Assembly: GCA_964187785.1 (NCBI GenBank)
Contig: OZ076409.1
Location: 68,450,001 to 68,514,000 of the forward strand
Direction of reading: 5' to 3'
DNA length: 64,000 bases
From: Amphiscolops sp. MND2022
Taxonomy: Eukaryota
A program made the position numbers and the translations under genes. Of the stretch, positions 7,879-54,651 are shown one piece after another. Position 1 is the first letter of the stretch; each line of letters opens with the position of its first letter. The notes under the pieces are model-generated. The model was given only the letters and a program-made list of their open reading frames with translations, had not been told where the DNA came from and did no database searches.

Positions 7879-7927
7879 TTTCTTTGTTGCAAATAGAATT
7901 GGGTAATTTAAGCTGCTGACTGTGCCT

Positions 7928-8173
7928 TGTTCTATTTCTTGGTTTGGATAAGAAAACAAAAGGTTTTATCTAAAATCTCTCTTTAACTCAAAGTATTGTC
8001 AAACGATCTTTCTCTAACGCAGCTATCTGTATCAAATGATATACTTTTGGTGTAAAGCAATAGTATGGTGTTTACAAACATTTATAAACATAATCTTGGT
8101 AGCTCTAAGAAAGGATCTAAGTTTGATTGACAATGTCACCGAAACATCGGTTCGGTATTTGTACCGTATAACA
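7928..8173 (-). repeat. 5' LTR of element 2303-8173
   Basis: Matches 2303-2548; adjacent to the PBS-like sequence and upstream of the gag start at 7878. Confidence 0.95.
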
Positions 8174-9172
8174 CTTATAAGTTTGAAGTATAATTGCATT
8201 CAACCTATCTGAAGGATACTAAATGCTCACTGGGTAATAAGGTGCTGCTTTCTCGAGACCAAAATTTCTAAAAAAAATCAATTTCCTCAGAGAATTAATT
8301 CTTCACCTATTTTTGTTCAATGAGAAGTTATCGTTTAATCGAAAACGTACTTTTTATAAGGAAAAACTGACATTCAATTTTGAAATATAGTCGATTGACG
8401 TCTCGAAAACGTTGAGAAAAACGCATAAATTAATATTCAAGCAAATAAACATCGAAAGCTGTAATCTAAGAGGCAACTTTTCATCTTATTACTCAGATTT
8501 GTGGCTATAGGCATCTTCCATTCGTTGCTCCTGCTTTATATAATCGAATTGTCGAATCAAGTTGTCGAAAAGTGACAAGCACATGGCAGTCGATGTTTCA
8601 TACATTTTCATGAATTTCATTCTACTGAATGATACATAACAAACAAGCCGTGTTTTAGTTGGTGCTTCCAATGGATAACGCAGACTATAGTGTGGTCTTT
8701 TAAATACCAATCGATCCAACAGTTTTGTTAATAGGTTTGCGAAATTTCTGATTATGTTTTCTCAGCACTTGCCGCGTTGTTTACTGATTAGAAGAGAGCG
8801 TGCCTCGAATGCAGGAGATGGTTGTTCCAATCCCGCCCAGAAGGGAAAATCGTTTTTCATGTTTGCTAGATTTGATTAGGTCGAAGGGTACAGCAGTAGG
8901 GTATTTTAGAGCATTGCTACTTTTACCGAGTTTCTTTTTTTATTCCTATTTGGGTCCTCTATTTGAGTTTTAAACTCAATTATTTGGGACGAAGCGTTTT
9001 GCGAGCCTAAGGGCTCCTCGGTGCACTATCTATTTACTGGTTAAACACTCATTCAATATTATCCAACTTGAGCGAAGGTCGAATTTCGATAAAAAATTTG
9101 ATTGGAAATTCCCATTTCAAATATGAATCGAACTCATACTAAAAACAAATTATATTTCGCCGACAGATGTTC

Positions 9173-9314
9173 AATTGTTTGTCCGGTGTACCTTTTGGCC
9201 CTGAGGTTACTGCGAATTTTGGTGTGGGCGGGGCTGGGAAACAGGAGTACACGGGCTCACATCCCGCACTAAACTAAATGTTTTTGGCTACACAGGTACA
9301 CCGGACAAATAATT
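9173..9314. mobile_element. Small MITE-like element with 21-bp terminal inverted repeats
   Basis: AATTGTTTGTCCGGTGTACCT (9173-9193) and AGGTACACCGGACAAATAATT (9294-9314) are reverse complements with 1 mismatch. Non-coding interior. Confidence 0.7.
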
Positions 9315-10949
9315 CCCCTATGGGGTTCTTTTTTTTGGTTTGGCATTGTGCAATTTGTTTTGAAAATCTGTGATCCAATTGAACTATGTGAGCCCCTAGA
9401 GCTAATGTACAACAAGGGGTGAGAGAGGTTCCCCCTTGACTCTTACACCTTTTTACACAAATTTGAAAATTTGAATGAGATTAAATGGCCCCTCGTGTTT
9501 TTTTCCGGCATTGCACTTGTCATCGATTTTAATTTTCAGTAATGAAATCATTTTCGATCCGAAAGACAACTTTTCTTCTGCCGGAAAGGTTCCCCTTAGG
9601 ACTTTTTTCGTAATTGTACGTTTTTTATTTTTCTTCAGTTAGTGTGACTTCTATTTAGTTTTCTTTATATTATCATTGGTTTTCTATTTAATTACAAACT
9701 TCTGTATTTTTCCATAACGAACTAAAGACCCCAGAAAAACCGAAGCAGCGAACTTCTAGTGAAAATTTTTAAAAAATTGAACAAATAGCAGTCGAAACAA
9801 CCGCAGCTCTTTCACACAATTATAGAGAAAACTCTCATCAGTCCCACAGGATCAAAAATAACCAAAAAAAAGTAAACCTTAGGACTCGGAAAACGGTTTT
9901 GAATCACAGAAAACCTAAAAAACTGAAAGTCGTGTGAATATTTTTCAAAAAAGTTTCGGTAAGACTCACTGTGCTAAAAAACCTCCAGGGGACCTTCTGT
10001 ACTTGAAAAATGATGTTCCTTCTAAAATAAGAGGGGTTGAAAAGATTCTGGAAAAATGTCGCATGGTTACAAAAAAACCCAGAGGGTCCTTTGGCTTTTC
10101 CTTGTATCTTGCAAACATAAAAATTTCCGTCTAGCGCAGTATTCATTCAGCTGATTCCAGAGAAACGTACTCACTCACAACGTAGAGAAACTCACGTAAA
10201 GTGGCCTCCAACCTGGCTTATGAGTTACAGAAGATAGTGAAGAAACTTTTGGAGGAAACACTTTTTTTGAAAATTCTCGGCTGAAACTAAGCTTTTTCTA
10301 CTCTTGAGGAATTTGAGGCTCAAGAATAGCCAATGCACTATAAAAACGCAAAGAAGTACGAATAAAAGAAACCTTTGATTCATTTTAGCCCATTTTAAAA
10401 GGAAACACCTATTTAATTATTTCTGCGATAATTGGCCTTTTTCGTTTTTCGGCACCATGCGACTTACCGAGTAAAGAGAAAGTTTTCTAATAGAACTTTC
10501 GAAAAACATTTTTCGAAATATTTAGTTTTTGAGGTTTTCTGTAAAGGAAAATACTTCAACTCAATTTTCGTCTCTGTGTGTCTTTCCCAAACTTTCATTT
10601 GGTCGAAAGGTACCCCCTTGCTTTTTCAGCAGATTTCGACTTACTTGAGGAAAGCAGTTTTGCGAGCTGAAACTTGTTTCGCCATCATAGGATTTCACCG
10701 GAAAAAATTCACAAATTTGAAATTTTGTGATTACTGTTGGCGAGAAAGTGGTTTCCGAGTCTCAAGTCTACTTCTCGGCGTAATTTTTGGCAGTGAGAAA
10801 ATAGTAAAAACTTGAAATGAGGCTCTTTGCAAGTTTAAGGAACTTGAACAATCCCGATTTGTTATAATATTGCACATAGTTTACCAAAATTGTCAAAAAT
10901 TGGAAATATTTTCGACAACTTTGGGTTCCATTTGAGGAAGATTTTCAAC

Positions 10950-15126: not shown

Positions 15127-15467
15127 GTAGGGCTGTTATCCCTTACTAACATTCTTGTAAAAATGCATGCGAACCAGAAAGTAACATACAAGCAAAACAT
15201 AAATCATCCCTTTAAATTACCATTAATTGAGTTCTAAGAATTGTTACATTTGTTATATTATCTAGGATTTTATAATATTATATAGTAATTTGTATTATTA
15301 TCTAGGTATTTGTAATATCATCGTACAAAAAAATAATTATTGACACCCGAGAAAAAAATCAATTTTCATCACGCATTCGTTACAACGGAAACGAACTCAG
15401 CGTAGCGTGATTGATTTTGTAATGATTGAACCAATCTGTCAGATCTATTAGAAACAAAACGGGAACG

Positions 15468-15736
15468 TGTACTGACCTACATTAATAACCAATAGTATTT
15501 AGATGTTTATAGAATGTTCTAGAATGTACATTTATTTGTTATTGAATGATTGTAAATCTCTACTCCCTCAGAGAGAGAAAAATAATAATCAGTATTCAGT
15601 TGACTTCCTTTTTGTTCTACTTCTAACACCTCGAACTAGTTGTAATAAAGTAAGCTAGCTAGCCTGGCTCCCGGCCGCTTTTAGTAGTTGTGTATAAGAC
15701 CAACCAAAGAACTAACCAACCATTAAAAGCAGCTCA
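15468..15736 (+). repeat. 5' LTR of giant element
   Basis: Direct repeat of 33637-33905; contains AATAAA at 15644. Confidence 0.96.
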
Positions 15737-15739
15737 ATT

Positions 15740-15752
15740 TGGTGCGACTTGT
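15740..15752 (+). promoter_or_regulatory. Putative primer binding site (tRNA not assigned)
   Basis: TGGTGCGACTTG lies 3 nt after the 5' LTR; TGG is complementary to tRNA CCA. Confidence 0.6.
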
Positions 15753-17576
15753 AAAATTTCTTGCCTTTTCTCCTAAATGATTTCTCTTCTCTCAACAATC
15801 ATACAAATACCACTCTCCATATTTGAAATTCTCTGGAACTGCAGTGAAATCTTTCTAGCATTCCTTGAAAGTTTAGTCTGTGACTTTCTGAATTTCATCA
15901 ATAAATACATCATCGTTCGAAACACAATTTCTCCACTACAACAATCAACTTAAATATAACAAATTTTCTTCACTACCGGTTTATCACGTTTTCTAACACG
16001 TTGACACGGTTCTTCCTCATGTTCTTTTGCCATACCGGTTTATCACGTTTTCCAATACGTTGAAACGGTTTCATTTCGGACTGATTTATCCAAAGTGACA
16101 CAGTTCTGTTCTCTATACTGATTTATCACAGCTAATCCGGAAGCTTGTTGAAACAGTTCTTTGACGTTTGTCTGGTTTATCAAGGTTTTCTAAAACCTTT
16201 GACACAGCAACTTTCTTCAATCCTGCTATCTTGAACGTCAGGTGGACTCCTGGTGTAATAGTTAATTGAGTGCATGTCCAACTCCGCTCACCTATAAGCA
16301 CATACGTCTCAAGATCAACTTCGTGTTGGCAGAAAACCTGGATTTTCTACTTTTACGTTTCGAATCCACTTTCTACAAAATTTCCTACAAAAAAAATTCA
16401 GAAATAGACTCTGAAAACAAAAAAAGGCAACCAAGACTAACTACAAAAAACAACCACGCACTATTCCATTTCTTTTCCTATTGTCGACAAACAATACAAA
16501 TAAATTCACAAAACTTAAATAATACAAGTAACTTCAAAAAATTTCAATAACCAACAAAAATAACAACACAAAGTACACTCAACCTTATCTCTAGTACTTT
16601 CAATGGTAATAATTTTAACATAATCCTACAAATCAATTATTTTAACAAAATACCACATACAATTCTCACAACTCTTTTGCTTTAAAACTTAAAATAAGGC
16701 ATGTAAATAACACAAACACAGTAAAGTTAGTTTTCTACTTTCAGGCACCCACAATTCCTATCCCCTCCCGTAAGACTTAGCCAATCAGACAGCCTCACCA
16801 GCTTACTCTGATTCTAAGACTGACTAAAAACCTTAGTTAAGTGTAAACGTCTTTAAGGAGAATCGAGAGGACACCGAACTACGTTCGAATCTTCAAAATT
16901 CTCAGAAAGTAAAAGTAAAAGTAAAAGAAACAAAGATCAAACTTTGATCTTGATCAGTATTGATCAGACTTTGGATAGTGGACGTTGATTGTTCAGAGTT
17001 CCACTCCCTTAGTCTTAAAACACACAACCCTTGTTATAATTAAAACAATCTTAGTTTTTCTGGACGTGTCAGTAACCTTATGTTAGACACCTTAAAGTGA
17101 TCCAGACTTAAAATAACATTTAGTTTCTGTTAGCAATCCTTTGAGGTTGAATACAGATCCTACTGCATCCGCTTCTTTCTTCTCTATCCAAAACTATTAA
17201 CTTCTCAAATAACATCAAATTACAATACAAATTAAATGAACCCTAACATATACAACCAAGCAATTTATCCTTTCAACTTTTACATTCCGCCAATTAGCTC
17301 CCTTCAAAACCCTACAGCAAACGATTTTGAAAGATTAATTGAACGATATCAACAATATTTTTTCTTTATCATAAATCAACAACGACATAACCCAAGAGCT
17401 CCAACTTAGAAAATGTCTATAAAAATCAATTGCAACGTTCTCACCTTCACATTATAACATGTGGAAAAAGGTTACCACAGTAGTACTCATTACAACATAC
17501 ACGTTTTGTGTCTTATTTATAGTTTGTGTCCTTCTTGAAAAAATACTTACGGTGATGAGAGACAAACTTTAGAAAA

Positions 17577-20500
17577 ATGTCCTTAACAACAACCTATTTA
17601 CCTTTTCAAACCCCCATCATTAAAAATGCAAAAGTTGTAAAATTAGAACTAAACCCATTCCTACAAAACATTATTTCACATTATACACAACCACTCCCAT
17701 TTGAAAATGAACCACACACAATTGAAACAATCCCTCTTATTAGAGAACATTTGGACACATACCTTTTTATATTAGATACAAAGTTTTAACAATCACCGAA
17801 GAATACCCAACTTTTCAAATCTCCTTTCTTCAACAAAGACTTAATTCATCTCATATATACAGAAGAAAAATAAATCCAATAAACATTCAAGTTCCTATTA
17901 AACAAGTTTTTCATGCTTTTCTAAACAATGTAAAAGACCACAACTTAGCACAGGAAATTCCAAACTTTAGTCCAAATGCACTCGACGATCTTCAACGATA
18001 CATAGACAATTTCGACGCAGAAATTATTGAAAGATTAGTTAATCCTGAAGATAATCCCCATCATTGGTTACAAGCTGATATATTACGAATTCAAAATTTC
18101 ATCTACCATTACTTCAAAGACTTAACATTAAATGACCAAACAATTCCTCAGATCAAAGTAATATCTTTATTTCTCAGAAAATACTTCAGATTTAATTATT
18201 AACTATTATGGTCACAACAAGATCAATCTGCTTTTACAGCATTTCCAGATCATTTTACATTAGAAGAATGTTTACCATTCATCATCAGTGAAAAAAATGA
18301 ACATCCTTACTTTCATAAACCACAATCAATTACAAAACAAACCTTAGATTACATACATTCCGATCCTCTATTAATTACAGAAAATGATCTATTCGCAGAC
18401 AATAGACCTTACCACTATGAACAAAATTCTCAAGATCAACAAAATTTACATTTTAACACTAACAATTCTACTGAAGATGATAACACCGATCAGGAAAATA
18501 CAACCCAACAACAAAATCAACCTGAAAACTATAACGATAATGAGTTTACTACCCAAGAATCTACAATTTCAACACATAATCCATCACAAACAGGGACATC
18601 AACATCAGTACATACTCAATCCTTTAGAGTTCCCACTAGAGTTGTAAACCAAAGACAAACTACAGATAGTCCTCAATCTCACTTAGCTACATCTCCAAAC
18701 CTTAATATAACTTTTAACCTTCCACATACAGATGACACACACGATGAAACCCATGATACATTCCAGGATGATATTCTAACTACATCTAGTGCTCAGAATA
18801 CTTCTGTTAATGTTGCATCTCCAACAAGAACTAATCCTGATTATACAAGATACATTACTCGATCTAGATTTGATCCTCCATCAATTCCCTCCGCCTTTCG
18901 CTCAAACAGATCGACCTCTTCCAACAACAATTTTAATGATAATCCCCAAACTTCCAACCGATATTACGATCCATTTAATTATAACTTTTATCCTCCATCA
19001 AATACAACTACCAATACATATATCAACCAACATCACTCTCAAATTAATACAACTTCAACAACACAAAACCCCTTCATACAATTATCAAATACCAATATTT
19101 CACAGAATATATATTCTCGAAATCAAGGAACCTCGTATCCTTCCACTTCTTATTCTAATATCACACAGGATTCTCAAAGGAGACTTCATAACCCTCCACT
19201 TACACATATACCAACGGATCCTCTGTATCAAATGCATCCAAATCCAAATCCTAACCCTAATTCAAATCCATTACCACAAAATACAATCCAACATATACCT
19301 CCACCACTCACACAACAATTAGCTCCTCCACCCCAATATTTACCAATGCCACAAGATACTTTTATAAACATGTCCGCTTCAATATCAGAACCTATGAAAC
19401 CTTTTGATGGTTTGGACCATTCTTACACCCCCGAAGAATATCTACAACAAGTCGAAGCAAGATTAACCTTCGCCATAGGTGAAGAACCTCAAAATAATCC
19501 TATATAATACAAATCTTGGCATAACAGACGCATGGCTTACATACCATGTTCATTAACAGGAACAGCTCTCGATTGGTACACTAACCTCCATATATCATAT
19601 AAACAACAATGGAATTCTTTTGTACAATTATTCAAAAAACAATTCTCATCTCAAAAAACTGCTTACTACGCTCAAGTAGAAGCTATGTCACTCATGAAAA
19701 AGGATAATGAAACAGTTCGCCACTTCGCCCTTAGAGTACAACAATTAGTAAAAAAAGGGTTGGTGTAATGAAAATGCAGCTACCATAAATCTCAAAAATA
19801 ATGAAATCTTTACAAAAGGGTTACCAAAGAAGTTAAAAAATTTTGCCCATAAACGACAAGTTAAACATGTATCAACATTACTTGAACCTTCAATACCATT
19901 TCATACACTTGTTAGACATGTCGATTCTGAAGATATTGCTAATGAAAAAATTAGAACTAACGACTTAGCTCTAGAAATAAACAAAGTATCGCTTAAGATG
20001 ATACTAACAAAAAGAATTTGAACATGAAGATCAGATAATGGTTACTCAATCTGGAGACCCAAATAACAAAAGCAAACCAGCGTATAGAAAATATTGTTCT
20101 TATTGTCACAAAAATAATCATAGTATTTCAAATTGTTATCAAAAACAACGTGATGACGAATACCAGAAATACAATAACCAAAGATCACGAACTCCTCAAC
20201 AATCCTTTGTACAATATTTTCGCAGTAAACCTAATAATCCTCAAGAAAATCGAAATGACAATACAAATCCTTACTCTTCAGATAATGATCGTAATAAATA
20301 TAATCAAAATTACTATAATGATAGATACAGAAACAATGATAGATATCGTAGCAATAATAGAGAATATTCGCAAAACAACTATAGATCAAACTCTCGACAA
20401 AGATATTATAATCGATCCCGGAGTCCGTATAGATCTCGATTTGATAATTATTATCAAAGAAGAACTCCTTCTAGATCTCCATATAGATCTCCATACAGAA

Positions 20501-20700
20501 ATAACTCAAATTACAGATATAATTCTCGCTCAAGATAAAGATGTCGTTCTCAATCACAAGGAAACTCCTTCAAACGATATAGTTTTCCATATAGATCTCC
20601 ATCAAGACCTAGAGATTTTAGATCAAAATCTAGAACACCCTCAAGAAACAGACAACAAAACAGAATAAATCAAGTAGACGTTAAATCTGCAAAAGAAAAT
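17577..20700 (+). pseudogene. gag of giant element (long N-terminal extension, capsid, CCHC knuckle, RS-rich tail); interrupted
   Basis: Capsid-like PMKPFDG...PEEYL and SLTGTALDWY...ETVRHFALRV; knuckle CSYCHKNNHSISNC; RSRSPYRS repeats. Several point stops and frameshifts. Confidence 0.88.
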
Positions 20701-23700
20701 GATAGTACAAAATTTGAAATTCACACCTGTCAAATAACTGAAATAGCTAATACAATCACTCCTTATAGTTGGTTTTATCCACTATATATTCACGCTTCTG
20801 AAACAAATGATAACATATTACCTTCAAAGTTAGAAATCTTATTCCTCTTAGATACTGGAGCATCCATATCTGTCTGTTTTGAATTTACCAACATTTCATG
20901 TAATTTCCAAACAATTAAACATCAATGTTCCAACTAACCTCCAAAACAAAAGAGCCAAAACTCTTACAGTTGCAAACCAAACTGAAGTACCAATAATACA
21001 TTATATTTCGATGACCTGTTTCACTGAAGTAAATCACAAAACACGATCCTTCAATATCGATTTTGCCGTAGCAAATATCAAATACAACATTCTTGGAACA
21101 CCCTTTTTCGAAAAGCACATCCAAAATATTGATTTTCAACAAAATATTATGACATACATAGAACAACATCCAAAGCTTCCAACAAAAACAACATTTTCCA
21201 CATTTGCAGAAAAAGATTACCCATATATTTCTTACATTTATACTATTAAATGTAAGGAACCAATTCACTTTAAACCAAGGTCAGGAAAAACCATACATTT
21301 CCCAATTAAAAACTATTCAAATCTACATTTTGAACTTTAGGATAATACAAAATTCTATCCAACAAACCCATATACAAATTTCTTACAAAAATTCAAAAAT
21401 ATCTTTCATTTCTTAGATATGATAGTCAATGAAAAAAGCAAAGACTCATGTGCAACCATAACTCAAAACTTTACATCTTACTCAGCTACATTACCACGAG
21501 GAATTATTGGATATATAGAAATACCTATTACTCAAACAACTCCTCGTCACTACAGAGTTAACTATGTAAATTCACCTATTCACTCTGTAATACATGCGTA
21601 TCACCCTGATACCACAACTCCGATTCAACAAAATTCTTATGTAGATATGAACTTATGTACTAGGGTAACACCACAATCCTTATTAGAAAACAAGATAGAA
21701 ATCAACGACAAAACGCTTCAAATTCCTATACCTTCTGTTACTGGAAACCTTCGACCCTCAGATAAAATTCGAAAAGATTTCCCTCCATTACCCTATTCTA
21801 CAGAAAATCAACAATTCATAAAGAAGTTCAATTTTGAATACTCAGATTTAACCGATACAGAATTTGTAAACCTCTGCAATATTCTGAATAATAACCAAAA
21901 TTGTTACGCCGAACATAAGAACGACGTAGGAAAGATTTCTACCCCCTTTCGAATTAGAATAAAAGATAACTGTAAACTTCACACATAAAGACCTTCTAAA
22001 GTACCTATTCACTATAGAGATAGAATAAATAAATTTTTATTAGAACTTGAAAAATACAACATCATAAAACAAATTGGTTCAACAACAGATGAAAAACATC
22101 CTATTGGAACAACATTTTTAAACCCTTTAATTATTATCCCCGAAGGAGACGCAATAAAAGTTGTTTTAGATGCAAGACATCTAAACTCAAACACTAACCA
22201 AGAACTTGAATCTTGGCCTATTGAACCTTTAGCTCCTCAACTAGCTAGAGCCAATAAAAAATACAAATCAACTATTGATCTAATGTATGCATATGCTCAT
22301 ACACCATTAGACGAAGAAACAATTAAACTTACAGGATTTTCATCCGGTGACAAATTATACGCCTTTATCCGTGGATTGTATGGATTAAAAGGACTTCCGA
22401 ACTTTTTTACAAAACAAATGTCAACTTTCTTTAGATCGCTTATAGACAAACGTTCTGCGTTAGTTTATATCGATGATATTTTATTACTCGCAAACGAAAA
22501 ACAAGAAATGTTTGAACTTATAAAAGAATTACATACAATAGCATCTCGAGAAAATCTCAAACTTGCACCTGAAAAATCATTCTACATGTTACTCAAAGTA
22601 AAATTCCTTGGACATGAAATTGGTAACAACACAATTAAACCAATTCCATCCAAAATTGAAGCTATTAAAAGAATTCCATCACCAAAAGAAAAGAAAGATG
22701 TTATGCAATTTCTTGGCAGTGTTAACTTTTATTCAAAATTTATTGAAAAACTTCATATAAACCTTAAACCATTGTATACATTACTACATGATGATGTTAA
22801 ATTTCAATGGACACCTGAATTAGAAAAAATATTTCAAAATGTTAAAAATACAATGACAGCAAACACTGAATTAACAATACCCAACACCACGTATCCATTT
22901 TTCATAATAGTAGATGCTTCGTTAGTAGGTTTAGGCGCAGTCTTATTCCAAATGAACGAAGAAAATAAGATGAAAGTAATCTCTTATAACTCCAGAATTC
23001 TTAAGACACAAGAACAAAAACTTTCAACTTTAGATAGAGAACTTCTTGCAATAGTCTACGCACTGCAAATATATGAATTTTTGATCATTGGATCTCCTCA
23101 TCCTATATACCTCTTCACAGATCACAAGCCTTTACTACATTGTTTCGCAAAGAAAGGAAATCTTAGTCCTAGATTCTATAGAGCACAAATGCAACTAACC
23201 AAATTCTCCAAACTAAAAATCATTCATACCCCTGGAAAAAAATTAACTGTAGCAGATATGCTTTCACGAACCTTTACAAAAGAACAGTTACAAGTACACC
23301 AATTACGACACAAGCAATTACCATCTCAAATAGATTTCTCTATCATGAAAGATAATCAACTCAAACCAGTACATTATTTAGTAAAACATGAAGAAATAAA
23401 ATATAATCAAAAGAATGATTGTCATCCTATCCTTGCTGACTACGGAGACGACCAATTCTCTATCCGTATAAATAACAAAGGAGAAGAAATACACATAAAG
23501 CCTTTAGATTCCTTCACTTTTCAATCTATTGTTCCATTCGAATCAAAATATAAAAAGCCTACAAAAAACCAAGCAAAATCTCTTTTACAACAATCGACAA
23601 TTCTTAATGATACTGGCATTCTTAGTGATGAAGATGAAATAACTCAATCAAATAATATCCAACAACAAAACTCAGACATAGTAAAAGAACACACCCTTGC

Positions 23701-25605
23701 TATACAATATCCTACCAAATCCGACTATTGTAAACAACAAGTTCCATTTTTTGATCCATCCTTTTTCAAATACAAAAAGTATTTTAATTACTTCTTCCTA
23801 CCAGAAGATACACAAATAACCATTGAAACAATAAAAACTCAACAAAACCAAGATACTGTTTTACAAAAGGTTTACCAATGGATACTTAATAATGAAAGAC
23901 CCTTACAAATAGACCCAACAATTGCAGCTAACTCTTTCTTATTAGTATATTACAAAATCTTCAACCAATCATATATTAATCATGATACAAAAACTATCCA
24001 CATAGATTATCCTAATCCTCACGATTCCAACCCGAATCAAAGAGACAAAATATGTCTCCCATTTAAACTTTTCCACGCAGCTTTTGACAAACTTCATGCT
24101 CATGGACATTCAGGAATAAAAATATCCATCAAAGCTTTCAACCAATTTTACTTCATACCGTACTTGAATAAATGGATGTCAATATTCATCCATGATTGCA
24201 TTGAATGCCAACAAAATAAACATATTAACCAAAAATTACAAACTGCATCTATACTAACCTTCTCAGAAAATGCTTCATATTTTAATTACCGAATATCAAT
24301 GGATACAAAAGGACCTATAAACCCACCATCAAATCAAAATTCATACATTCATGTTATAGTAGACGCTTTTAGTCACTTTGTAGTAACAGTACCTATAAAA
24401 CAAAAAAATGGTCAAAACGCTGTTAACTCATTACTACATCATTGGATAAAAAAATTTGGACCTCCTGTACATCTAGTTACCGACCGTGGAACAGAATACA
24501 TTAATTCAGAATTTGCAAATCTTGCACAATGGGAATTAGACATTCACCAAGAACTCCTCATGCACCATGGACAAATGGTTTAGTTGAAAATCAAAACAGA
24601 AATCTTGGAACTCATCTCAGACTTTTCTTACATAACACTCCAGAAAATTGGTCAACCCAAGTTCATATGTATGCTTATGCACATAATTCACAACCACTTT
24701 CTGAAGTAAACTTATCTCCATTTGAAATAGTATTCCATACTATACCCAGAATTCCAATCAACTTTGAACTCAATCTCCAAAGAGATACATATAGAAATTG
24801 TACTTCTCAATATTGTCAAGAATTACCACTTCATACACACTATGACAAATCAAATCTAAACCCTTTCTTTCATAAAATTTTATCTGAACCAATTCCACAA
24901 TGGATCTTAGCTACTGAAACTGCTATGATACAGATATACCATACGGTATACGAAAACACAAAAAGAAAGATTAATTCCTATGCTTATTTTAACAAAACAT
25001 ATCACAATCCAAGACCCTTAGATATTGGTACATTTGTACTAAAAACAAATTTTCTCCATGTTCATTTTTCCGATAAATTAAAACCTCTCAGAAATGGCCC
25101 ATTCAAAATTATTAACAAAATCTCCGACATAACATATGAAAGTGTTAATCAAGATGGTTATACATCGCACATACATAGAAATCATTTAATTCCTTATCAT
25201 CCAAAAGAACCAGTTATTTTTCCTTTCCTACAACAATTTCATCCTCATTTATTTAATGACTGTCATTCAAATATAAACGATCAAATAATTAACTCTGATG
25301 AAGGCAAATTTACTGAAGAAGAACAATTTCCTTCCACAACATCTAAAGAAACGGATATACCATTCACGATTGACTTACAACCAGAATCATTTAGCCAATA
25401 TTGTTCATTTCCATATAAACAAAAAGAACAAATTCCTCAAAATACCTACCTGGATAACCAATCAGATATTCATGACTATGATAACTTTATTAATCCCCGA
25501 AGACACTCCTATAATAGATACAATTTCCGCCCACAACCAAGAAAAGACTACCGACGTTTCCTTGGTGAAAACGATATAATTTCACTTTCTCCAAAATCCT
25601 GCTGA
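20701..25605 (+). pseudogene. pol of giant element (PR, RT, RNase H, IN); interrupted
   Basis: LLDTGAS with DTG at 20851, in the gag frame. YIDD at 22466-22477. RNase H VDAS...RELLA...TDHKPL...ADMLSR. Integrase HGH..CIEC, MDTKGP, TDRGTEY, NGLVE. Stops at 21338 and 21986; frameshifts near 20875 and 24525. Confidence 0.95.
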
Positions 25606-25794
25606 AATACGGAATACAGAAAAAAGCACAAAAAGAAAATTTGAAAGAAAAGCAAAAGTTTGAAGTTTACTGTGAAACTGAACGAAAAATATTTCACAAG
25701 TGATAATAAACGAAAGAAATCGATATGAAACTATAAATACTTTATAAATTGAAACAAACTACCTTAACACAAAGATTTCAAAATTGATAGACAT

Positions 25795-27244
25795 ATTCAC
25801 TCGCCATCATCAACCACAAATAACTCTTCTTCTAGTTCAACATATTCACTCCAAAGATTACCTGAATATACAGCATATTTAAACTCAGATACAGACATAC
25901 TGGATTTCTCATCCTCAAATCCCAGTCCATCCGCTCCATATACTCCTGATAGAGTACCAACAACACCCACCAATACACCTATAACCCAAACTCAAACAGT
26001 AATAATAACAACTCAATCACAACCTGTTTAACGAAATCTAACATTTGTAGAAACAAATTCACCACTTTCTGACTCTAATGATGAAACTCCTACAATACCA
26101 AATACACAAGTTACTTCAAATATTCAAATATTTTAAATAGACCTCCTCTTCCACCGATTACTACCACTCGTTCTATTCATATCCCTGATCCTAGCTCAGT
26201 CCTACAATACATAAATTCTTGTCCACACAAAGTACCAACCGCAACGAAAACAAAAAGAAAAACTCCTTTACCTACATTACCACAAAATCTTGATTTACCA
26301 TCATCAAGTAATACTCCAATAACAGTTTTACCAGAACCTTCATTGAAATCACCAACGAAGGAAACACAGCAACACCCAACTCCTTCACCACCTGAACTAA
26401 GTTCATTCACATTTTCTCAAATATATCCCAAACTTGAATGACAACGTGTACATTCAACCACCACCTCTTCATTAACAGATTTATATCATAAAGATAAAGA
26501 TTCTGACTCAACTGCTAGCACTAGAGTACCAAGACATAATTATAACCTTCGATCTCAACAACAAAGAAATTCTCAAGAATTACAATCTTTAACTAGTTCA
26601 AGTACAAACTCAAGACTATTTCGACAGCACGCCCAACCCAGATTGGACACTTCTTCTCTTTCCTCATCTCAACCCACTATACCATCTTCTCTATCACTGC
26701 CATTTCAAATCACATCAGGATTTGAAACAGCCTCTCTTCTTTCTGAAGAGCCAGTAACTATATCAGATAGCGCAGCTAATTTTTCACGAGTTTACTCACC
26801 TAGTTCAATAGCATCAAACTCTTCCATACAATTACCTGAATATTTTTAGAAGATTTCTCAAGACCTCCATCGCCAAATCCTCACGAATATCCTATTCGTG
26901 TTAATTCAAAAATTGTTCGCACGCTTAACGAAGATCCTCGATACACGGTATTACCTGCAAGATTTATAAACAACAGTTCACTCTCAACTCAAAGAAAACA
27001 AAGAGAACTACGAAGATTACAAGAACAACAACTCACATTAAAATTTGAAGTAGAAGTCACATTCAACTCGTTAGGACCTCATCCATTCTCTCTTTCAACA
27101 AGAGTAGCACACAAAACAACCCCATCACCATTCATAGTCACATCCATTTCTTACCTTTGTGACGCAGATTTACCTGAGATTAGAACAGGACATATACACT
27201 TTTTTAATCCCTACTCCGGACTCAATTATAGATCACTATTTTAA
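25795..27244 (+). pseudogene. Decayed Ser/Thr/Pro-rich accessory ORF between pol and env
   Basis: Frame fragments SPSSTTNNSSSSSTYSLQRLPEY...PSPSAPYTP, DTSSLSSSQPTIPSS..., and a terminal globular-looking part (LKFEVEVTFN...GHIHFFNPYSGLNYRSLF*) that stops 2 nt before the env ATG. Confidence 0.6.
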
Positions 27245-27246
27245 CC

Positions 27247-29824
27247 ATGAACCAAACCACCTTTACCCTATATTTATTATACATAATACAAGTTGTTAAA
27301 TACACATATATAATACACATAGTCCACTCTTTAGTTCACCCTTCAACTGTTCCTAAAGTTGACACCACCAATTCTGAAAATCATATTTCAGACCAAGATC
27401 CTAACATTTTAAACTTGATGGTATCTCATTATGATTGTGCAAAACAAAACAACTTAAGACAATTCTGTTTATTAAATGTAGAACCATGTAAACAAGCACC
27501 CTCAGATATACAACACACAAAAACCCAAGCAACAGTTTATGTTAGAGCAAAAGCTAAAAGAATAAAAGCCTTTAAATGCCAAGCATATTTAAAGACTGAG
27601 AAAGTCTGGTGTTCACAAACATTCACATCTAGTAGACGATATGATCGTTTACAATGGGGACAAAACACATTAGAACTTCCAAAAATATTGGACCCTATTG
27701 AATGCAAAAATATGATGAGATATTTAAACGCGACTGATAGTGAAGAACTAAACAACTACAATATACAAAGTTCTTTCTCATTGTTCGACGATAGTAATTA
27801 TCAAAACACAATTGAACGAATTCAGACACCATTTAGAGTAAAAAAATCAATTACATGGCATATTGGAACCTTCGTATTTGATGAAAATTATCCCGACTGG
27901 ATAGTTAATGTTACACAAAATACATACTCCAGATGTCGATCAGACCGAGAACATTTAATTACCCGACAAAGTTGGAAACTTAGAAATGTTAACACCGCAA
28001 TAGATTATGACGATAAAAACAATCAATTAATACATGACGGACACATATTACCATGTTATCATTCAGACGGATTTTGTAAACCAACGACCAAAACTCCATA
28101 TACATTAACATGGTTTGATGAAAAGTTTTGCCTCATATTTCAACTTCAAGAATTCATTGGTAGAATGACACGAATCAAAGATAGATATTGGATAGAAACC
28201 GATACCTTCATTGAAACTTCAAACATCACACAAAAACTTCAAACCGAAGGAATACAAGGGACAAGATATCCTAATGTAAAAACACCACAATCAAAAGTAA
28301 GCAATCCAAGCCTTTCTCGATTTGAAATGTACCCAATTGCACAAACCTTCTGTTGAAAACCTGAACTATTATTTTCAACACAATATGATGACATCTTTGT
28401 TACATACTTAGATGGTTTTGATATGAACACAGGATTTCCCAAAACCACACTCAATAATTGACCAAACAATTAGTGGAAATATAAAATATGATGATTCAAA
28501 CAAAAGGTATATATTCCCTGCATTGAATATATCAAACAATTTCGCCACTTTAGATTATGATGCCCATATTAATACAAAGATTGATTTCACAATAAATCAT
28601 GTATTTAAATCCATGACAGTACAAGAACTAAACACTCTTCATACAATATGTGAACTGGAAAGAACTCAATTATTAACGATCTTAGCTATGTCAGTTAAAA
28701 ATCCTCAATTAGCCGGTTTTCTTTAAACTGGAAATCGTAGTAACTTTCTCTACGTTGAAGGATCTACAGCATGGCTGTATGATTGCCCTCATTTTATATC
28801 ACCACTATACAAGGCAGACAAATGCTTTGATAGAATTCCTATACACTACAGAGAAACGATAATGTATGTTGACCCAATAACAAGACAAATTTTTAACTTT
28901 GCAACACCAATTGAATGTGGAAATAAGCCACAAAATATAATAGATTTAGATCCAGATTCTAACGACGGAGATTTTTATGTGTTAACACCAGAACCACTTA
29001 AACGAGAAGCACCACAAATGTTTAAACCTACCCAAATTAAAACAACAATCACTCCTAATACATTTACCACCCAAGATGCCGGTATTTACTCAAATGCAGA
29101 ATTAGATCAATTCTGGAATAGAGTACTAATTGCTAAACATTCTGACACAACTCTCCAATTACTTGGAAAATCATTAAGCTATGATTTCATCTCAATGCAT
29201 AATGATAAACACTCATACTCAGGACATAATCCCTATAATCATTTAAGGATTGGAGTACATGACCACTTGTTAAACCTTTTACCACTTTTCAACCCTGACT
29301 GGTTCAGTCAAGCATTCATTAATTTCTTTGGATATCCATGTTATGTTTTAACTCAATGTGGAATTTATTTTTCAACATTTCTTTTCATTAGAGAAGTTTT
29401 AACATTTTTACTCAAATTCTACAGAACAATTAGCATAAAATATAATCTCCAAAGCAACATTTCCATTTTGAGTTCAATAGCCCATGGATTTTTTAATATA
29501 GTTACATCGGAAATGGTAACCGATTTAAACAATACAGGAAAACGAAAACGGATATATACTAAACACAAAATTACAACAAGTGAAAATGATAATATCCTAT
29601 TGCCGGAAAAAGAATTAAACAATAAACGAAGACACTCTGATACTGATTCCCCTTATTTACCTCCTAAATATTCCAGTAAGAATTCAACATTTCAATCACC
29701 GCAAAAGACACACCCAACTAATGTAAACGATATTAATTCTCAGGACTATGACCCAATAATGTCAAATGTAATAGCTGTACCGGAAAGCCCTGCTAAAGTC
29801 TTTATAAAATTCAATCCCTCCTAG
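27247..29824 (+). pseudogene. env-like glycoprotein, class III fusogen (herpes gB / chuvirus G-like); two stops and a frameshift
   Basis: Hydrophobic N-terminus; YDC...LLNVEPC...FKC...WC...IEC pattern; ICELERTQLLTILAMSVKNPQLAGFL-TGN...EGSTAWLYDC...KCFDRIPI...YVDPITR...IEC; GIYSNAELDQF; C-terminal hydrophobic TM segment and cytoplasmic tail. About 860 codons when rejoined across the stops at 28354 and 28724 and a frameshift near 28460. Confidence 0.85.
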
Positions 29825-30280
29825 CTGTAAAGCAATAACTTAAAAAACAAATTAACCTCAGAAAAAGTTCAAAAAATTATCAACTAAATTCTTCTCAGTC
29901 TAAATTTCTAATCAACTAAACTTCATTCAAACCCAAATTCTCACTCGGACCGGTCTCTCCTTTTCAACTTAACAACAAATTCACTTGCTCACCAAAACTC
30001 AACTCTCAACCAGAAGACTTCAACTGGATTTTCAGTCCATCTAAAAGACCGAAATCACAGAAGTTTCTATTCCTGGAATAGATGCCATTGTGATTGTTGA
30101 TGTTTTCAACCCATCATTGACTCAGTATTCCCATATTGTAAGTACAATTTAAATTTCAATATTAACAAACAATTTAATGGATAGGAAAGACATAACAAAA
30201 TTTTTCCCTATTATTAGAAACAATATAATCAAACGTTATAATCATTATTTTAGCTCTATAAAAACACGCAAGTTTAAATA

Positions 30281-31330
30281 ATGGAATCCTTGCCCGAAAT
30301 TGATGTAGTTAACTCTAATCCCTCTGAATTGCTTGCATCCCCTTTGAATATAACTATTCAACAAAATGTTAACGAAGATAATAACTCTTCTTCCAACTCT
30401 CAAGACCCCATAGAAACTATTCCTATTGAACAAGTAGATCATGTTAACGCAAGATCTCAAAAAAGAAAGTACCCAGATATAGCTGCAGATAAACCTTTTA
30501 TGGAATCTGGCGCTTGCCCTCCTTTCATAAAACCAATTAAACAAGATGAAGATAGAGATTGTGAACTAGTTCCTATTCTCTCGTCAAAACACTTCACCTT
30601 TCAATCTCAGTTAACTTCGTTATACATGATTCCAACAAAATATAAATTCATCATCAGAGAATTTAAAAATGATTATCATACATCAATTGCTTCAAAATTG
30701 ATTACCCCATATGATTGGTGGTTAAACAATAAAGTGAAAATTTTCTCACTCCAATACAACTTCCTCAGACCATCTCCATATGATCTTCGAACCGAAGAAA
30801 ATGATGCAAATTTTTTGCCATACCAAATCAAAAAGGCTCACCACATGACTTATCAAAAGTTTCTTCAATATAAAGAGCCCGATACTTATATATTCTTCAA
30901 CTCCAAATATACATCGCCATTCACTTTCAACTCAAAATATTTAATAGATCATACCAAAACAAAAGGAAAACTTAGAAATTATGACCCGCTGAAACAAAGT
31001 TTTCTCTTCCTTCCAAATGATAACCCAAAAAGACCAATCATTGTACCACAAGAATACCTCATTCTGAACGACGATTCGTTACTACAAGAAGATATACCTC
31101 AACATATATCTGATCCTCTTCCTCCACTTCAACATATAGCCTCTCAACCTTTGGGAGACTGTGAAAAATCTTATTTTCACGCAATGACCGAAAAGGGATA
31201 TTCGAATAATGAACTAACTTTTATTATTTCTCATCTGCTTTCACTTCTTACAAATGGAAATCACAAAGAATATAAAAAGGCGAAACAAGAATCGCCTAAG
31301 AAAACCAAAAATGATATTCCTCAACCATAA
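30281..31330 (+). CDS. Unknown 349-aa accessory ORF of giant element
   Basis: Long ATG-initiated sense ORF inside the LTR boundaries. May continue by frameshift to about 31573. No motif recognised. Confidence 0.65.
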   Translation: MESLPEIDVVNSNPSELLASPLNITIQQNVNEDNNSSSNSQDPIETIPIEQVDHVNARSQKRKYPDIAADKPFMESGACPPFIKPIKQDEDRDCELVPILSSKHFTFQSQLTSLYMIPTKYKFIIREFKNDYHTSIASKLITPYDWWLNNKVKIFSLQYNFLRPSPYDLRTEENDANFLPYQIKKAHHMTYQKFLQYKEPDTYIFFNSKYTSPFTFNSKYLIDHTKTKGKLRNYDPLKQSFLFLPNDNPKRPIIVPQEYLILNDDSLLQEDIPQHISDPLPPLQHIASQPLGDCEKSYFHAMTEKGYSNNELTFIISHLLSLLTNGNHKEYKKAKQESPKKTKNDIPQP

Positions 31331-32096
31331 AGTTTTTGCCCAACAGATGAATTACAGAAATATACAGAAATCCTGAAGATCATAAAACCGTACCATCATC
31401 CGAACCGAGATATTCATATAACAATCGCTGAAATCGTAAATACCCTTGAACAAGCTCGAAGCATAATACAAAATATCGTATTTGATACGACAAGAATTAG
31501 CCAATCAGCTTTGTGCATTCGCACATCTTTAGACGAATTCAACTACACTATTGAAAAATTGCATCGATCTTAACTGGTAATTATGGGATAATCACTTTAA
31601 AATTGTTAACACCTATCACTTAATCTCTTAACAACCTGTCAAAATTAATTGAGTCTATACGTATATGCCTGCTATGCACGATTATAAAACATGCTTGATG
31701 TTAAAATACACTTTTAAAATAAAATAACATAAAAAATTTTCAATCACGACATAAAAATTTTCAACAAAATTCCTCAATTGCTCCTCCTTTTATTGGACCG
31801 ATTTCAACAAATAAGTACTTATTTGAAAGATATTCAAATACCCTTCAAAAGACTTTCAAAATACAACAACTTAATTCTTAAAATTAAAAAGTTATAATAT
31901 CACAAAGTTCAATAAAAAAATGTCAACTACGAAATTCTATTTTCAAAGGAACTTTATTGTAAACAAACTAATCTATTTTAGGTGAATATCGTCACAACTG
32001 CTTCTGCAGCATTCCTTCCTCCTCTCAGGTCACCCAATCAAGAAGAACTCCAAAGTATCTTCTACAACTTTCAACGAAATTTTCCCATTCTTCAAT

Positions 32097-32573
32097 ATGA
32101 CAACTATTCATTCTGGCGACATAGACTGCCCGATAGCTCCTTTTCTTTCAATCTCTTCAGCTCGATTGCGATTTTTGATCCTGAAAAAGCATTTAACGAC
32201 ATTAAATGCGCAGCTTAGAACAGTCAAAAAGGCAGACCCACATCTTACAAGGATGATATTGCTTAATATGTTCCAATTATTCCAATTAACAAGAATAAAT
32301 TTCGACCAATATCTCCTTATTCATAAACATCCTGACACTTATGCAACCCAACGAGACGCCACTACCCAAACAGAACATACTACCATCAAGTCCAAACGTT
32401 TAGTACGAAATCTATCCAATAGAATGCGTTCTGAAATGGAAAAACAACGTCTAAATTCTTATTGGCCTTCAGATGATAATGATGATACTGACGAAGAACT
32501 TCAAAAAGACCCTCCAGAAGCACTTATAGATGATAATTACCCGCACAAAACATATACTTACGTTTCTTTCTAA
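32097..32573 (+). CDS. Unknown 158-aa accessory ORF of giant element
   Basis: ATG-initiated sense ORF with helical-looking core and acidic tail; overlaps a decayed upstream frame (31920-32218). Confidence 0.5.
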   Translation: MTTIHSGDIDCPIAPFLSISSARLRFLILKKHLTTLNAQLRTVKKADPHLTRMILLNMFQLFQLTRINFDQYLLIHKHPDTYATQRDATTQTEHTTIKSKRLVRNLSNRMRSEMEKQRLNSYWPSDDNDDTDEELQKDPPEALIDDNYPHKTYTYVSF

Positions 32574-33636
32574 TATCAACAGACGCCATCAACAGCACCC
32601 GTCCACTCCCATCTTCGAATCCCACATCTTCAACGATTGATCGTCGCAGATCAGCACCCGTCTTCAACTTCATCGCCGCCCAACAGTGCCCATCTTCATT
32701 CATCTGCTGACCCTTCTTCATCCATCTTCCAATCTTCAATCGTCACCCATCCAATTCTCCGCCGAAGATGATCGATATTTAATAATAAAGAAAACTCAAA
32801 GAAAAACATTGTGCATGATAACATTTCGAAAAGTTTCAAACTCATCAAATATTTAGAGAATTCAAAACTCTTACCGAAAATATTCACTATGTAGTTATTA
32901 TTTCAAATTTCATCCCCACCCACATTTATTTGCCCAAAAATCCTTTATTCACACCCGTACCGATATTTATTTGCTTTATTTTTAAAGAATAATTAGTAAT
33001 AATTATTATTTTTCGGTGCTATCCTATCCAAAAAATTCACAAATATTATCAATAAATCTTTTCAAATTTCAACAAAACCAGCTCAAAAGTAGATCAAGCA
33101 CATTTTTCAAATCAAATTCGAATAATGACAAACCCAAATTCTTGACGTTTTCAACATTTGTTACATAACAAACCCGCCAAAGTTAATCACAACCTGAAAT
33201 CTTTTCGGACAAATTTCACGCTCGATGGAAAAATTTTCTCTTCTCAACGATATTATTTCAATGACTCTTTGACCTTTAACTCGTATGATGTTTGCTCACG
33301 TTTGTTCAATGCGAAGTTCTTTCGAAAACTTCAACAGAAGCATAAAATTGAGCATCTACCAGTTCAAAAACAAGCCGACGAAAGCATAGTGAAAAAGAAC
33401 ACTTTGACGCTTTTTGAACTGTAGTCGCACCTACGAGGTGTCAATCAAAAATTTGACAATTCGAGGTACATCAATGAGTCGAACTTACACCACTCTTAAC
33501 GAGACTTATGCCAATCATCCATCTAATGAAAAATATTAACTAGCTGAAACGCTAAGAACATTTAAACAAAAATTTTTCTTCATTTCAATTAATGATGCTA
33601 CTTTAAAATTTTATTTTATTTGAAAACTGGGATGGA

Positions 33637-33905
33637 TGTACTGACCTACATTAATAACCAATAGTATTTAGATGTTTATAGAATGTTCTAGAATGTACAT
33701 TTATTTGTTATTGAATGATTGTAAATCTCTACTCCCTCAGAGAGAGAAAAATAATAATCAGTATTCAGTTGACTTCCTTTTTGTTCTACTTCTAACACCT
33801 CGAACTAGTTGTAATAAAGTAAGCTAGCTAGCCTGTCTCCCAGCCGCTTTTAGTAGTTGTGTATAAGACCAACCAAAGAACTAACCAACCATTAAAAGCA
33901 GCACA
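33637..33905 (+). repeat. 3' LTR of giant element
   Basis: Direct repeat of 15468-15736; preceded by the PPT-like tract and followed by TSD AACG. Confidence 0.96.
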
Positions 33906-33909
33906 AACG

Positions 33910-38635: not shown

Positions 38636-39560
38636 GTTGACTTATCCGTTTTTCCGGAGAACCTTTTTGGACTGGAGTGGCTAAGTTTGAAAAACACCAA
38701 GAATTTCGTGAACTCATACAGTGAATACTATTTTGCAAACAACACCAATATTGAATTCTTGGATCTTAGTGGGGTTCATTTGTATCTACTTAGCGCCACT
38801 CTGTTCAACAGTTTGCCGAATCTGAACACTTTGATAATTCAGAATGCCTACATTAGCTATAGCCCCAACGACTGGGGATGGTGCCCTTTTAAAACACTGG
38901 AGCTGCTTAATTTGGCAGGATCCGAATGCTCCAGTGGCTGCGGTTTCTGGAAACTCTTGGGGCAATATTGCAACATTATTACACTTGATATGCGCCAGAC
39001 TAAAGGTTTTAGTTTAGACTTTAATTCTGTTTTCCCGAACGTCACGGAAATTGACCTCACCGAAGCAACGGCGCAAAAGGTTTACATGGAAAATCTGCCA
39101 GAACTGACAAGTCTCCTTTTGACGAGGGCCCGCATTGAAACAAAGTTGACGCTACACAATCTGCCGTCACTGAGCCAGGTTGATTTCACAAACCTCGCCT
39201 CGACTTCGAAATACAGCCCGATTGAATTGATCGAAGTGTCAGATCTCCCTGAGTTGACTACTTTGGATTTTTCCCAACTGAGTTTTGAAAATTTGGAAGT
39301 CTCAAGTTTGACTGCTTTGTCTTCCATCTCATTTGATATGAGTGAAATAAACGCAATAGCGCTATCGGATCTACCTGAAATCGTGAGTTTAAATTTCAAA
39401 GGCAGTAAAATAGGCCAGTTGGCAATGTCCAATCTTCCCAACTTGCGCGGTTTAGATTTGAGTGGGCTTGACATCAACAACATCAATATAACCGGCTTCG
39501 AGTCATTGATTACTGATTTGGGTTTGGAGTATGAGCAGTTTTTGGACGCTACTACGCCAG
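38636..39560 (+). CDS. LRR protein, exon 5 (many LRRs)
   Basis: TTTTAG acceptor in phase 0 and in frame with the 38687 ORF. Repeated LxxLxLxx motifs. Donor CAG|GTTTGG at 39561. Confidence 0.88.
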
Positions 39561-39856
39561 GTTTGGGTGAAAGAATACAATGCTATATTGATCAATAAAA
39601 CATATAAAAATATTTATTTGATTAAGAATTTAAAAGAAAGTTTTTAGCCCACGGCCAGGGAAACAGTTTTCTTGACCAACTGATTGCTTGCCAAATGAAT
39701 TGACTGCCAGCAAAAATGTTGTTGGCTGGCAAATAAGCTTTTCGAAAATTCTGTTTTCTGAAAATTTCTCATTTATGATGTCTTTCGCTTGCACATTATG
39801 GAAGAGAGTGATGTTTAAAACTGTCGAAAATTGACATTTTTCCGTACTTTCTAGAG

Positions 39857-46063: not shown

Positions 46064-46520
46064 GTTCAATGTACTTCATACTGAGAAATTATGTTAACGT
46101 AGTCGTGATTTGAGTGTTATATTTTGGTAATCTAAGTTTAAGAGAAAAGAATATTGTAAAATAAAGATCTCTAGTTCAAATCTATATCTCAGCTTTTCAA
46201 TTTGTATAAATGTATCTAATGTAATTTAACGTTAGATTGAGTTTGTTTGTAAACAACTCCAGCTGGTATGTAGACACTAGACAGTTTTCATGTAAGTGAA
46301 CCGAATCTCGGTAGAGGTCGTAGGAACCGGATTGAACCGTATATAACATTTCCCCCTCTATTCTTTTCTCGTGTAGTTTTTCTACATCTGATCTGAGGGG
46401 CCTGGTTTTGATTCTTCCTCGGGTAGGAAGTCTGCTGGTTTCTGGATCGTCTCCGGTTTTGGCGTATCTTTGTGTCGATTCCACATTGTACCTGTAATAT
46501 ATACATTGTGTTTTAGACCT

Positions 46521-51756: not shown

Positions 51757-51797
51757 TCTGTGTTAAGAAGTTTTTTGTTCAATTGTTTTAAAAATTG

Positions 51798-51810
51798 GCT
51801 GACTGCGCCA
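51798..51810 (-). promoter_or_regulatory. Primer binding site, probably tRNA-Ser
   Basis: Minus-strand TGGCGCAGTCAGC directly after the 5' LTR; complementary to the ...GCUGACUGCG-CCA end of invertebrate tRNA-Ser. Confidence 0.75.
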
Positions 51811-54236: not shown

Positions 54237-54651
54237 GTGTAAAATATCATTATTAATACCTAATTTTCCATTATTAAATATATAACTAAAAACGTGTATA
54301 ATTAAACGCCGGGTTTTGAAAAATTTCGAATATCCACTTTTTGCTAAAAAAAATTATAAATCAAATTTTGGCAGAGAAGTTAACTTTTTCAAGGCGCTAG
54401 ACATTTTTTGCCAAAATTGCCAGCAAAAATTTTCCACTTGCAAGACAGTGCATTATTCTGCCAGGTATCTAGCAAGATCTTGTAAGATCTTGCAGGTGGG
54501 GTCGAGTTTTCTCGGGGCTTCGAGCAGTGTATAAATGAAACTATAACTACGAAACTACATTTTTGTGACGAATATTTAGTGTGAAATATACTTTTTGTTG
54601 ACATAGAATTAGAGTTAGTCAAAATTGTCTTGGGCATACCTGGTGTGTTCA

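Follow-up and report, generated by a model that had tools for sequence, protein, structure and literature searches.

A broken class III envelope gene in a large Ty3/gypsy element of Amphiscolops, and a methionine-free gene before it that likely begins at CUG

Introduction

What kind of envelope gene lies broken at positions 27247 to 29824 of a 64,000-nucleotide stretch of the Amphiscolops sp. MND2022 genome (contig OZ076409.1; the whole stretch is called the window below), and how would intact copies of it be expressed? A first-pass annotation, made from the letters alone, had proposed that this env resembles a class III fusogen of the herpesvirus gB or chuvirus G type in a gypsy backbone, implying a capacity for infection from cell to cell. 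The joining of a class III env fold to a gypsy backbone is now close to certain. We further hold it probable that the window carries the broken env of an 18.4-kb Ty3/gypsy element, in whose open copies the class III fusogen and a CUG-initiated open reading frame (ORF), here named ORF X, share an RNA and ribosomes reach env by leaky scanning. As for a capacity of the element for infection, we can only infer it.

The genome is that of an animal: it holds Wnt genes, and its mitochondrial code is the invertebrate one (AGR read as Ser, ATA as Met and AAA as Lys), which is not the code of vertebrates, ascidians, echinoderms, rhabditophoran flatworms or cnidarians. The natural copies used for comparison were picked for an open env; they fall into three clades (A1/A2, B/G and C/D/E/F) with eight families between them.

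Results

A predicted class III fusogen

The env gene runs on the plus strand from an ATG at 27247 to a stop at 29822-29824 and lies in three pieces, 93-94% identical to a natural open copy of 856 amino acids in the same genome. Alignment to that copy bore out the two stops and one frameshift that had been claimed, namely a TGA at 28354-28356, a frame change at about 28436-28443 and a TAA at 28724-28726. Two of the three pieces match the Pfam family PF24664 (Monjiviricetes fusion glycoprotein; E 9e-4 and 2e-12), and because of these matches and the resemblance to the open copy the window env is more than a chance reading. The motifs attributed to it were located as well: SHYDC...LLNVEPC near the N-terminus, LYDC...CFDRIP, GIYSNAEL, a helix motif consisting of ICELERTQLLTILAMSVKNPQLAGFL, a stop and TG, and a hydrophobic segment at about residue 704 (open-copy numbering) with a tail beyond it. 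The gene thus described has an N-terminal hydrophobic leader, 14 conserved ectodomain cysteines, a transmembrane helix and a tail with PPxY.

Fold work was done on the natural open copy, with 60 natural rows supplied to AlphaFold. This sequence matches PF24664 with 88.5 bits (E 3e-25), the cut-off being 27, and has no match in the PDB by sequence at E<=10. The model (pLDDT 71.7, pTM 0.52) shows a beta-rich N-terminal half, a central helix of 45 residues (437-481), a further helix at 616-651 and a membrane helix at 696-733, beyond which the tail is disordered. It agrees with a gB/G-like fold of beta-rich fusion and PH domains, a long central helix, a crown and a C-terminal arm. Helix 696-733 is the single, C-terminal membrane anchor, and each of the 14 ectodomain cysteines is retained in 74-100% of the aligned rows. 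In five within-clade family pairs the ratio of nonsynonymous to synonymous substitution rates (dN/dS) of the ectodomain is 0.02-0.05.

The structural comparison proposed in the first-pass annotation placed chuvirus G and herpes gB nearest. Foldseek against the PDB returned herpes gB in all 40 rows listed (best E 3.7e-11), and against BFVD its top rows were chuvirus-type G (best E 8e-32, TM-score about 0.4-0.5). In VIA the six best-ranked chains were gB (Z 8.9-6.6, the top three at 8.9, 8.6 and 8.5), with a vesiculovirus G next. Matches to env in the ESM Atlas (0.82-0.87) were mostly to class III families and were taken as a lead only. Weighing against this assignment are the low TM-scores to gB (0.14-0.29 by query length) and large root-mean-square deviations (rmsd) in Foldseek. 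Best matches to F-type or class I env had been named as the outcome that would tell against the proposal; no F-type Pfam match was obtained at E<=10 and the top folds were class III. The F-type candidate was rejected on these results, and a search for its furin site found no R-x-K/R-R in env, just three R-x-x-R. Taken together, the profile match and the agreement of the AlphaFold, Foldseek and VIA comparisons on gB and chuvirus G sustain the class III claim, and on the predicted structure we regard the assignment as secure. The open sister copies are accordingly described here as encoding a predicted class III fusion glycoprotein.

The element around env

The env gene sits inside an 18.4-kb Ty3/gypsy element with near-identical long terminal repeats (LTRs) and a 4-bp target duplication. 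Its parts in the window are:

15464..15467, second copy at 33906-33909, no strand: target-site duplication, 4 bp; sister copies are likewise flanked by 4-bp duplications
15468..15736, plus strand: 5' LTR, 269 bp, TG...CA, with 3 mismatches to the 3' LTR
15740..15751, plus strand: primer-binding site (PBS), first letters TGGTGCGAC
17577..25605, plus strand: gag-pol, with capsid, CCHC knuckle, protease, reverse transcriptase (RT), RNase H and integrase with GPY/F, from Pfam
25900..27244, plus strand: ORF X, methionine-free, from a conserved CTG; two frame changes and two stops in the window
27247..29824, plus strand: env, class III fusion glycoprotein (chuvirus G / herpes gB type), from Pfam, fold and alignment to the open copy
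30281..31573, plus strand: ORF4, 430-495 amino acids in sister copies and conserved in all families; one stop in the window
32097..32573, plus strand: ORF5, 158 amino acids, open in the window copy; conserved within clades, between-clade homology uncertain
33621..33636, plus strand: polypurine tract
33637..33905, plus strand: 3' LTR, pairing with the 5' LTR

The proposed gypsy backbone was confirmed by Pfam, which finds gag, protease, RT, RNase H and integrase upstream of env in gypsy order. The element has LTRs of the TG...CA form, a target duplication, a PBS and a polypurine tract, the protease-RT-RNase H-integrase order, a gypsy-type capsid and a GPY/F integrase tail. Its RT finds its best solved relative in Ty3 RT (E 1e-37; the next solved RTs follow at 2e-25, 8e-19 and 3e-12) and is, among solved structures, nearer to Ty3/gypsy than to retroviral or caulimoviral RT. 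A BEL/Pao identity was considered and rejected: Pfam scans of gag-pol (E<=1) gave only gypsy-type families and no Pao-type gag, protease or RNase H. The complement of the PBS has one mismatch in nine to a tRNA-Gly end given in the supplement of PMC13524379, a match that is not taken as an assignment of the primer tRNA.

In open copies gag-pol is a single frame of 2,640-2,730 codons; in the window copy it is interrupted by five frame changes and five stops. Four of the five reading frames of the window copy are broken (gag-pol, ORF X, env and ORF4), and because of these breaks it is inactive. Across 15468-33905 there is a strong skew of C over G and A over T, which ends at the LTRs of the element. 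The leader before gag (15737-17576 in the window) measures 1.0-1.9 kb across families and is ATG-poor in families A and B (8 against 26 expected and 4 against 12), which suggests that gag-pol may be controlled by scanning or shunting. A shifted open frame of 202-246 codons lies over the RS-rich nucleocapsid region in all families (20039-20668 in the window), and a second overlapping frame of 276-320 codons is found in pol of families D-F; both are probably shadows of composition.

A recently expanding clade

The comparison of copies showed the element to belong to a clade that has been spreading recently and counts at least eight families, and the gene order gag-pol, X, env, ORF4, ORF5 is common to all eight. 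Elements span 17.9-18.8 kb across families, and in most copies where a pair of LTRs was found the two are 99-100% identical. A gag-pol frame of at least 2,640 codons is intact in 5 of 10 copies of A1, 0 of 10 of A2, 1 of 3 of B, 0 of 3 of C, 1 of 2 of D, 2 of 3 of E, 0 of 1 of F and 1 of 1 of G. When the best 147 env matches in the genome were scored, about 67 (counted by eye, in a set biased towards the best-scoring) lay in stop-free frames of at least 862 codons. Three database relatives at 56-67% identity map to additional families with open env frames, and more came to light besides. Family A LTR/PBS junctions occur 1,217 times in the genome against 0 for the control, and the shared primer motif 4,893 times against 1,641. 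From the roughly 3,000 PBS sites above background, and assuming full-length copies, the clade could make up a few percent of the genome. Long tandem-repeat arrays enclose three of the five family D/E copies and partly a fourth, which hints at a target preference.

The comparison of env and RT trees that had been called for was carried out for six families and a distant relative on a metagenome contig (L128, see below). The trees agree on C/D/E and are compatible on B/G, with A unplaced. This co-divergence bears on the proposal that env is kept for a non-infectious role, such as fusion of host cells or receptor blocking, in an element that spreads only within the cell. The entry mechanism of gB-type elements is stated to be unknown in PMC13524379, which leaves room for such a role. 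Against it, env is retained in thousands of dispersed, LTR-bounded copies, it diverges with pol into the same B/G and C/D/E groups, and purifying selection acts on it along element lineages and not at one fixed host locus; we find this proposal improbable.

A methionine-free gene with a conserved CTG

Between pol and env lies ORF X, which measures 410-447 codons across families and contains no methionine in any of the eight. Its dN/dS is 0.09-0.17 in six of six within-clade pairs, and by this measure it is under purifying selection. The N-terminal part is rich in serine, threonine and proline and carries PSAP and YPxL, and a conserved domain of about 125 amino acids forms the C-terminus. A model of this domain from 12 rows is of low confidence (pLDDT 50; best Z 4.2; no Foldseek match at E<=0.001), and its profile had no match in the PDB.

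Conservation of ORF X between clades begins at a CTG whose -3 position is a purine and whose +4 position is G. This purine-n-n-CTG-G site, at 25900 in the window, is present in 47 of 49 copies, one of the others being without it and one not assessed. In the ORFs of these elements only about one leucine codon in fifty (about 2%) is CTG, and between-clade dS is 1.4-1.8; for these reasons the retention of the CTG is not explained by drift. The frame 5' of the CTG extends for 6-53 codons and is not conserved between clades.

Out-of-frame ATGs are depleted as well. Where shuffled codons give 5.8-7.8 of them, ORF X has 0-3, a shortage that reaches P<=0.05 in all eight families and is seen in none of the 21 control ORFs; the residual ATGs open just 1-17 codons. 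One may ask whether the shortage of AUG is simply a by-product of a disordered, S/T/P-rich sequence on an A/C-rich strand, in which case ORF X would be read in another way, for instance by reinitiation after pol, and env not by scanning. G is indeed rare on the coding strand, low-complexity Gag controls are likewise poor in methionine (1-4 per 440 codons), and significance is lost in two families under synonymous shuffling. Yet codon shuffles that preserve composition still yield the 5.8-7.8 out-of-frame ATGs just given, and Gag controls of similar composition show no ATG depletion. Of the NAY codons that precede G in ORF X, 8 of 46 have T as their last letter, whereas at other places in X about two thirds do. 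We place this by-product account lowest of all those considered, as very improbable.

The conserved CTG in a strong start context, together with the depletion of ATG up to env, leads us to infer initiation at CUG with leaky scanning to env. ORF X likely begins at this codon and likely lets ribosomes scan on to env, and we hold this translation model with fairly good confidence. Several observations weigh against it. With the protein held fixed, synonymous shuffles leave the depletion significant in six of eight families, the two others being C (P 0.38) and G (P 0.11). The eight families form three independent clades (A; B/G; C-F), and the tests are not eight independent trials. Family C retains an upstream ACCATG in good -3 context, and a stable hairpin around the CUG was absent in seven of seven sequences (z -0.8 to 0.9). 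AUGs are also present 60-100 nt 3' of the pol stop, and the CUG model therefore needs an RNA with a separate 5' end.

A rival account turns to splicing. ORF X could be real and yet be started by splicing from an upstream AUG exon; env would then come from a separate RNA, spliced or made from an internal promoter, and the CTG would be kept for another reason, for example as part of a promoter or as an RNA element. In general env is expressed by splicing or from an internal promoter (in the parts of PMC4402516 covered here), pyrimidine-rich stretches lie 5' of ORF X in families C-F, and an ATG is conserved about 70 nt 3' of the pol stop. This explanation meets three difficulties: no AG acceptor is conserved beside the CTG in families B-F, the protein conservation of ORF X begins at the CTG itself, and splicing leaves unexplained the loss of AUG, both in frame and out of frame, over the whole 1.2-1.4 kb. 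We consider it unlikely, albeit the most serious competitor to initiation at CUG.

Proposed expression and budding

Gag-Pol of Ty3-type elements copies and integrates the element RNA, and the single-frame Gag-Pol of the open copies would act in the same way. Under the favoured model of CUG initiation, the CUG would be the first start codon on a shorter RNA that has its 5' end just past pol and arises from an internal promoter or from splicing. A share of the ribosomes would initiate ORF X there, and the remainder would scan through 1.2-1.4 kb nearly free of AUG and initiate env. Through its YPxL and PSAP the ORF X protein may then recruit ESCRT/Nedd4 factors for budding, as may the env tail through its PPxY, and Env would fuse the particle with a target cell and so might give access to the germ line.

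The three motifs in question are late-domain patterns for ESCRT/Nedd4 factors, and in retroviruses the recruitment of budding factors is the task of Gag. Here YPxL occurs in eight of eight X proteins (0.07-0.17 expected per protein), PSAP in four of eight, within the S/T/P-rich part, and PPxY in seven of seven env tails; all three are absent from the first 950 gag-pol residues in five of six. A point against a budding function is that such motifs are short and are here sited in proline-rich sequence. In negative-strand viruses the matrix gene precedes the glycoprotein gene and matrix proteins carry late-domain motifs. ORF X likewise stands before the glycoprotein gene and has late-domain motifs in a disordered N-terminus, and by analogy it may be called matrix-like, in position and motifs only. 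A matrix-like role in budding is a tentative proposal to which we give somewhat less than an even chance.

Distant relatives

Env matches 2,097 representative proteins at E<=0.001. Genomic context was seen for one distant relative, L128, a single copy on a metagenome contig whose RT is 45-47% and whose env is 22% identical to those of the element. There a gypsy pol is followed by an ORF of 295 amino acids with one methionine, an ORF of 1,032 amino acids with none, env and a further long ORF. The 295-residue ORF has no out-of-frame ATG against 8.4 expected, and just three ATGs occur in the last 1.6 kb before env. The two frames (5959-9883) overlap by about 60 nt, and the second has cysteine clusters and coiled-coil-like stretches; they may be one gene of 1,300 amino acids with a single methionine, broken or frameshifted. 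Less favourable to a common mechanism is that the 1,032-residue ORF retains 19 out-of-frame ATGs (41 expected) and that the ORFs of this one copy have no detectable homology to ORF X. They also gave no significant match to ORF4. L128 thus lends support to a wider lineage with AUG-poor genes before env, and does not prove that the same mechanism operates in it. A pattern search of viral contigs gave no match.

ORF4, ORF5 and other features of the window

The dN/dS of ORF4 is 0.05-0.12 within clades and its identity between clades 35-41%; for ORF5 the corresponding values are 0.15-0.31 (within C-E) and just 17-25%. Neither matched a known family in Pfam nor, for ORF4, in the PDB or ESM Atlas; the ORF4 members have no Pfam family in common and the ESM Atlas gave no usable match. 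Cofilin, the best PDB match of ORF4 (E 0.03), was not accepted. The spacer between env and ORF4 (29825-30280) has 0-3 ATGs in most families; ORF4 may thus be served by a separate RNA start, or ribosomes may come to it by reinitiation.

Elsewhere in the window two env-less Ty3/gypsy elements of 5.6-5.9 kb lie on the minus strand (46115-52046 and about 2302-8176); their LTRs are 100% and 96% identical, respectively, and the two are 72-77% alike. Long direct repeats lie 5.1 kb from each other at about 55358-56823 and 60485-61947; the first contains a copia-type RT fragment (RVT_2), and from the sequence they appear to be a nested or duplicated copia piece. A leucine-rich-repeat open frame of 320 amino acids on the plus strand (38636-39598) is probably a host exon. 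The plus-strand frame at 54619-55083 presumably resembles the C-terminal part of a methyltransferase; it had no Pfam match at E<=0.01.

Discussion

The first-pass annotation suspected that gB-type env genes in animal Ty3/gypsy elements might already be described, and this proved correct: HSV/gB-type env in Ty3/gypsy elements has been published across animal phyla (Chary and Hayashi 2026, PMC13524379). The env described here is a new member of that published type, and the pairing of gB with gypsy is not new. Gag, a gypsy pol and a gB-type env are found together in one multi-copy LTR element, as in the HSV/gB-type errantiviruses, with which it shares the gag-pol-env order, a Ty3/gypsy pol, many near-identical copies and a gB-type class III ectodomain between a leader and a transmembrane segment. 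It differs from the elements of that survey in its length of 18-19 kb and its three extra ORFs. The survey filter allowed a pol-env gap of at most 1,000 nt, which the gap of 1.3-1.7 kb here exceeds. In the main text of PMC13524379, figures aside, the terms accessory, leaky, splic and matrix do not occur, and the nine-letter PBS had no match in its table of 1,512 elements, a weak test as many rows lack a PBS. No CUG-started ORF before env in an LTR element was found in the titles and opening abstracts searched, most subscription journals and Repbase/Dfam lying outside that search.

Surveys that combine short limits on the pol-env gap with ATG-based gene calling can miss these elements and ORF X. 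The clade also offers handles on env expression in gB-type errantiviruses and on their assembly and exit from cells, through its predicted non-AUG start, the two-gene RNA predicted for it and candidate motifs for budding that lie outside Gag. One may speculate further that it represents an undescribed lineage of giant, complex errantiviruses that would make a class III fusogen and, from a CUG start, a matrix-like protein for budding, both from one leaky-scanned RNA. Its budding signals would lie outside Gag, in an M-G-like module as in negative-strand RNA viruses, and it would have two more accessory genes, take up several percent of one invertebrate genome and also occur in one other host or more; in this entirety the reading is doubtful, with the odds against it.

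Among other systems, the chuvirus or Jingchuvirales G, and the mosquito BEL/Pao elements that bear it (PMC7642597, as cited in PMC13524379), share PF24664 and provide the closest predicted structures. They differ in that identity is just 13-16% and in that Pfam assigned a gypsy-type backbone here and matched no BEL/Pao domain. Herpesvirus glycoprotein B provides the best solved folds, the alignment covering model residues 60-655 and domain IV alone giving Z 8.0 at rmsd 3.9; unlike it, the env here has no sequence match in the PDB at E<=10 and no gH/gL-like partner was identified.

The planarian Burro elements, as far as the portion of PMC6431247 covered describes them, are likewise giant and gypsy-like, with thousands of copies, a mononegavirus-like env region and accessory ORFs. 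Burro env lies in frame between gag and pol in a polyprotein of about 4,900 amino acids, whereas here it is a separate ORF after pol and X. Oikopleura Tor4b and Tor3b (PMC4402516, in part) also have a pol-env gap, and their env is expressed from an internal promoter, which offers a model for the RNA required here; the parts covered describe no intervening gene and no non-AUG start. The closest parallel to the proposed translation is rice tungro bacilliform virus, in which, according to the parts of PMC5902531 covered, ORF I starts at AUU and is followed by AUG-free ORFs, all read by leaky scanning. ORF X-env likely works as ORF I-III of that virus do, from a start other than AUG and by scanning through long sequence that lacks internal AUG. 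That virus is a plant pararetrovirus with an AUU start, a genomic RNA with ribosome shunt and no envelope. Set beside these systems, the layout of gag-pol, X, env, ORF4 and ORF5, about 18 kb and five frames with a likely CUG gene sharing its RNA with env, looks new, and the additional ORFs flanking env, which the first-pass annotation did not mention, make the element more unusual than its pairing of gB with gypsy does.
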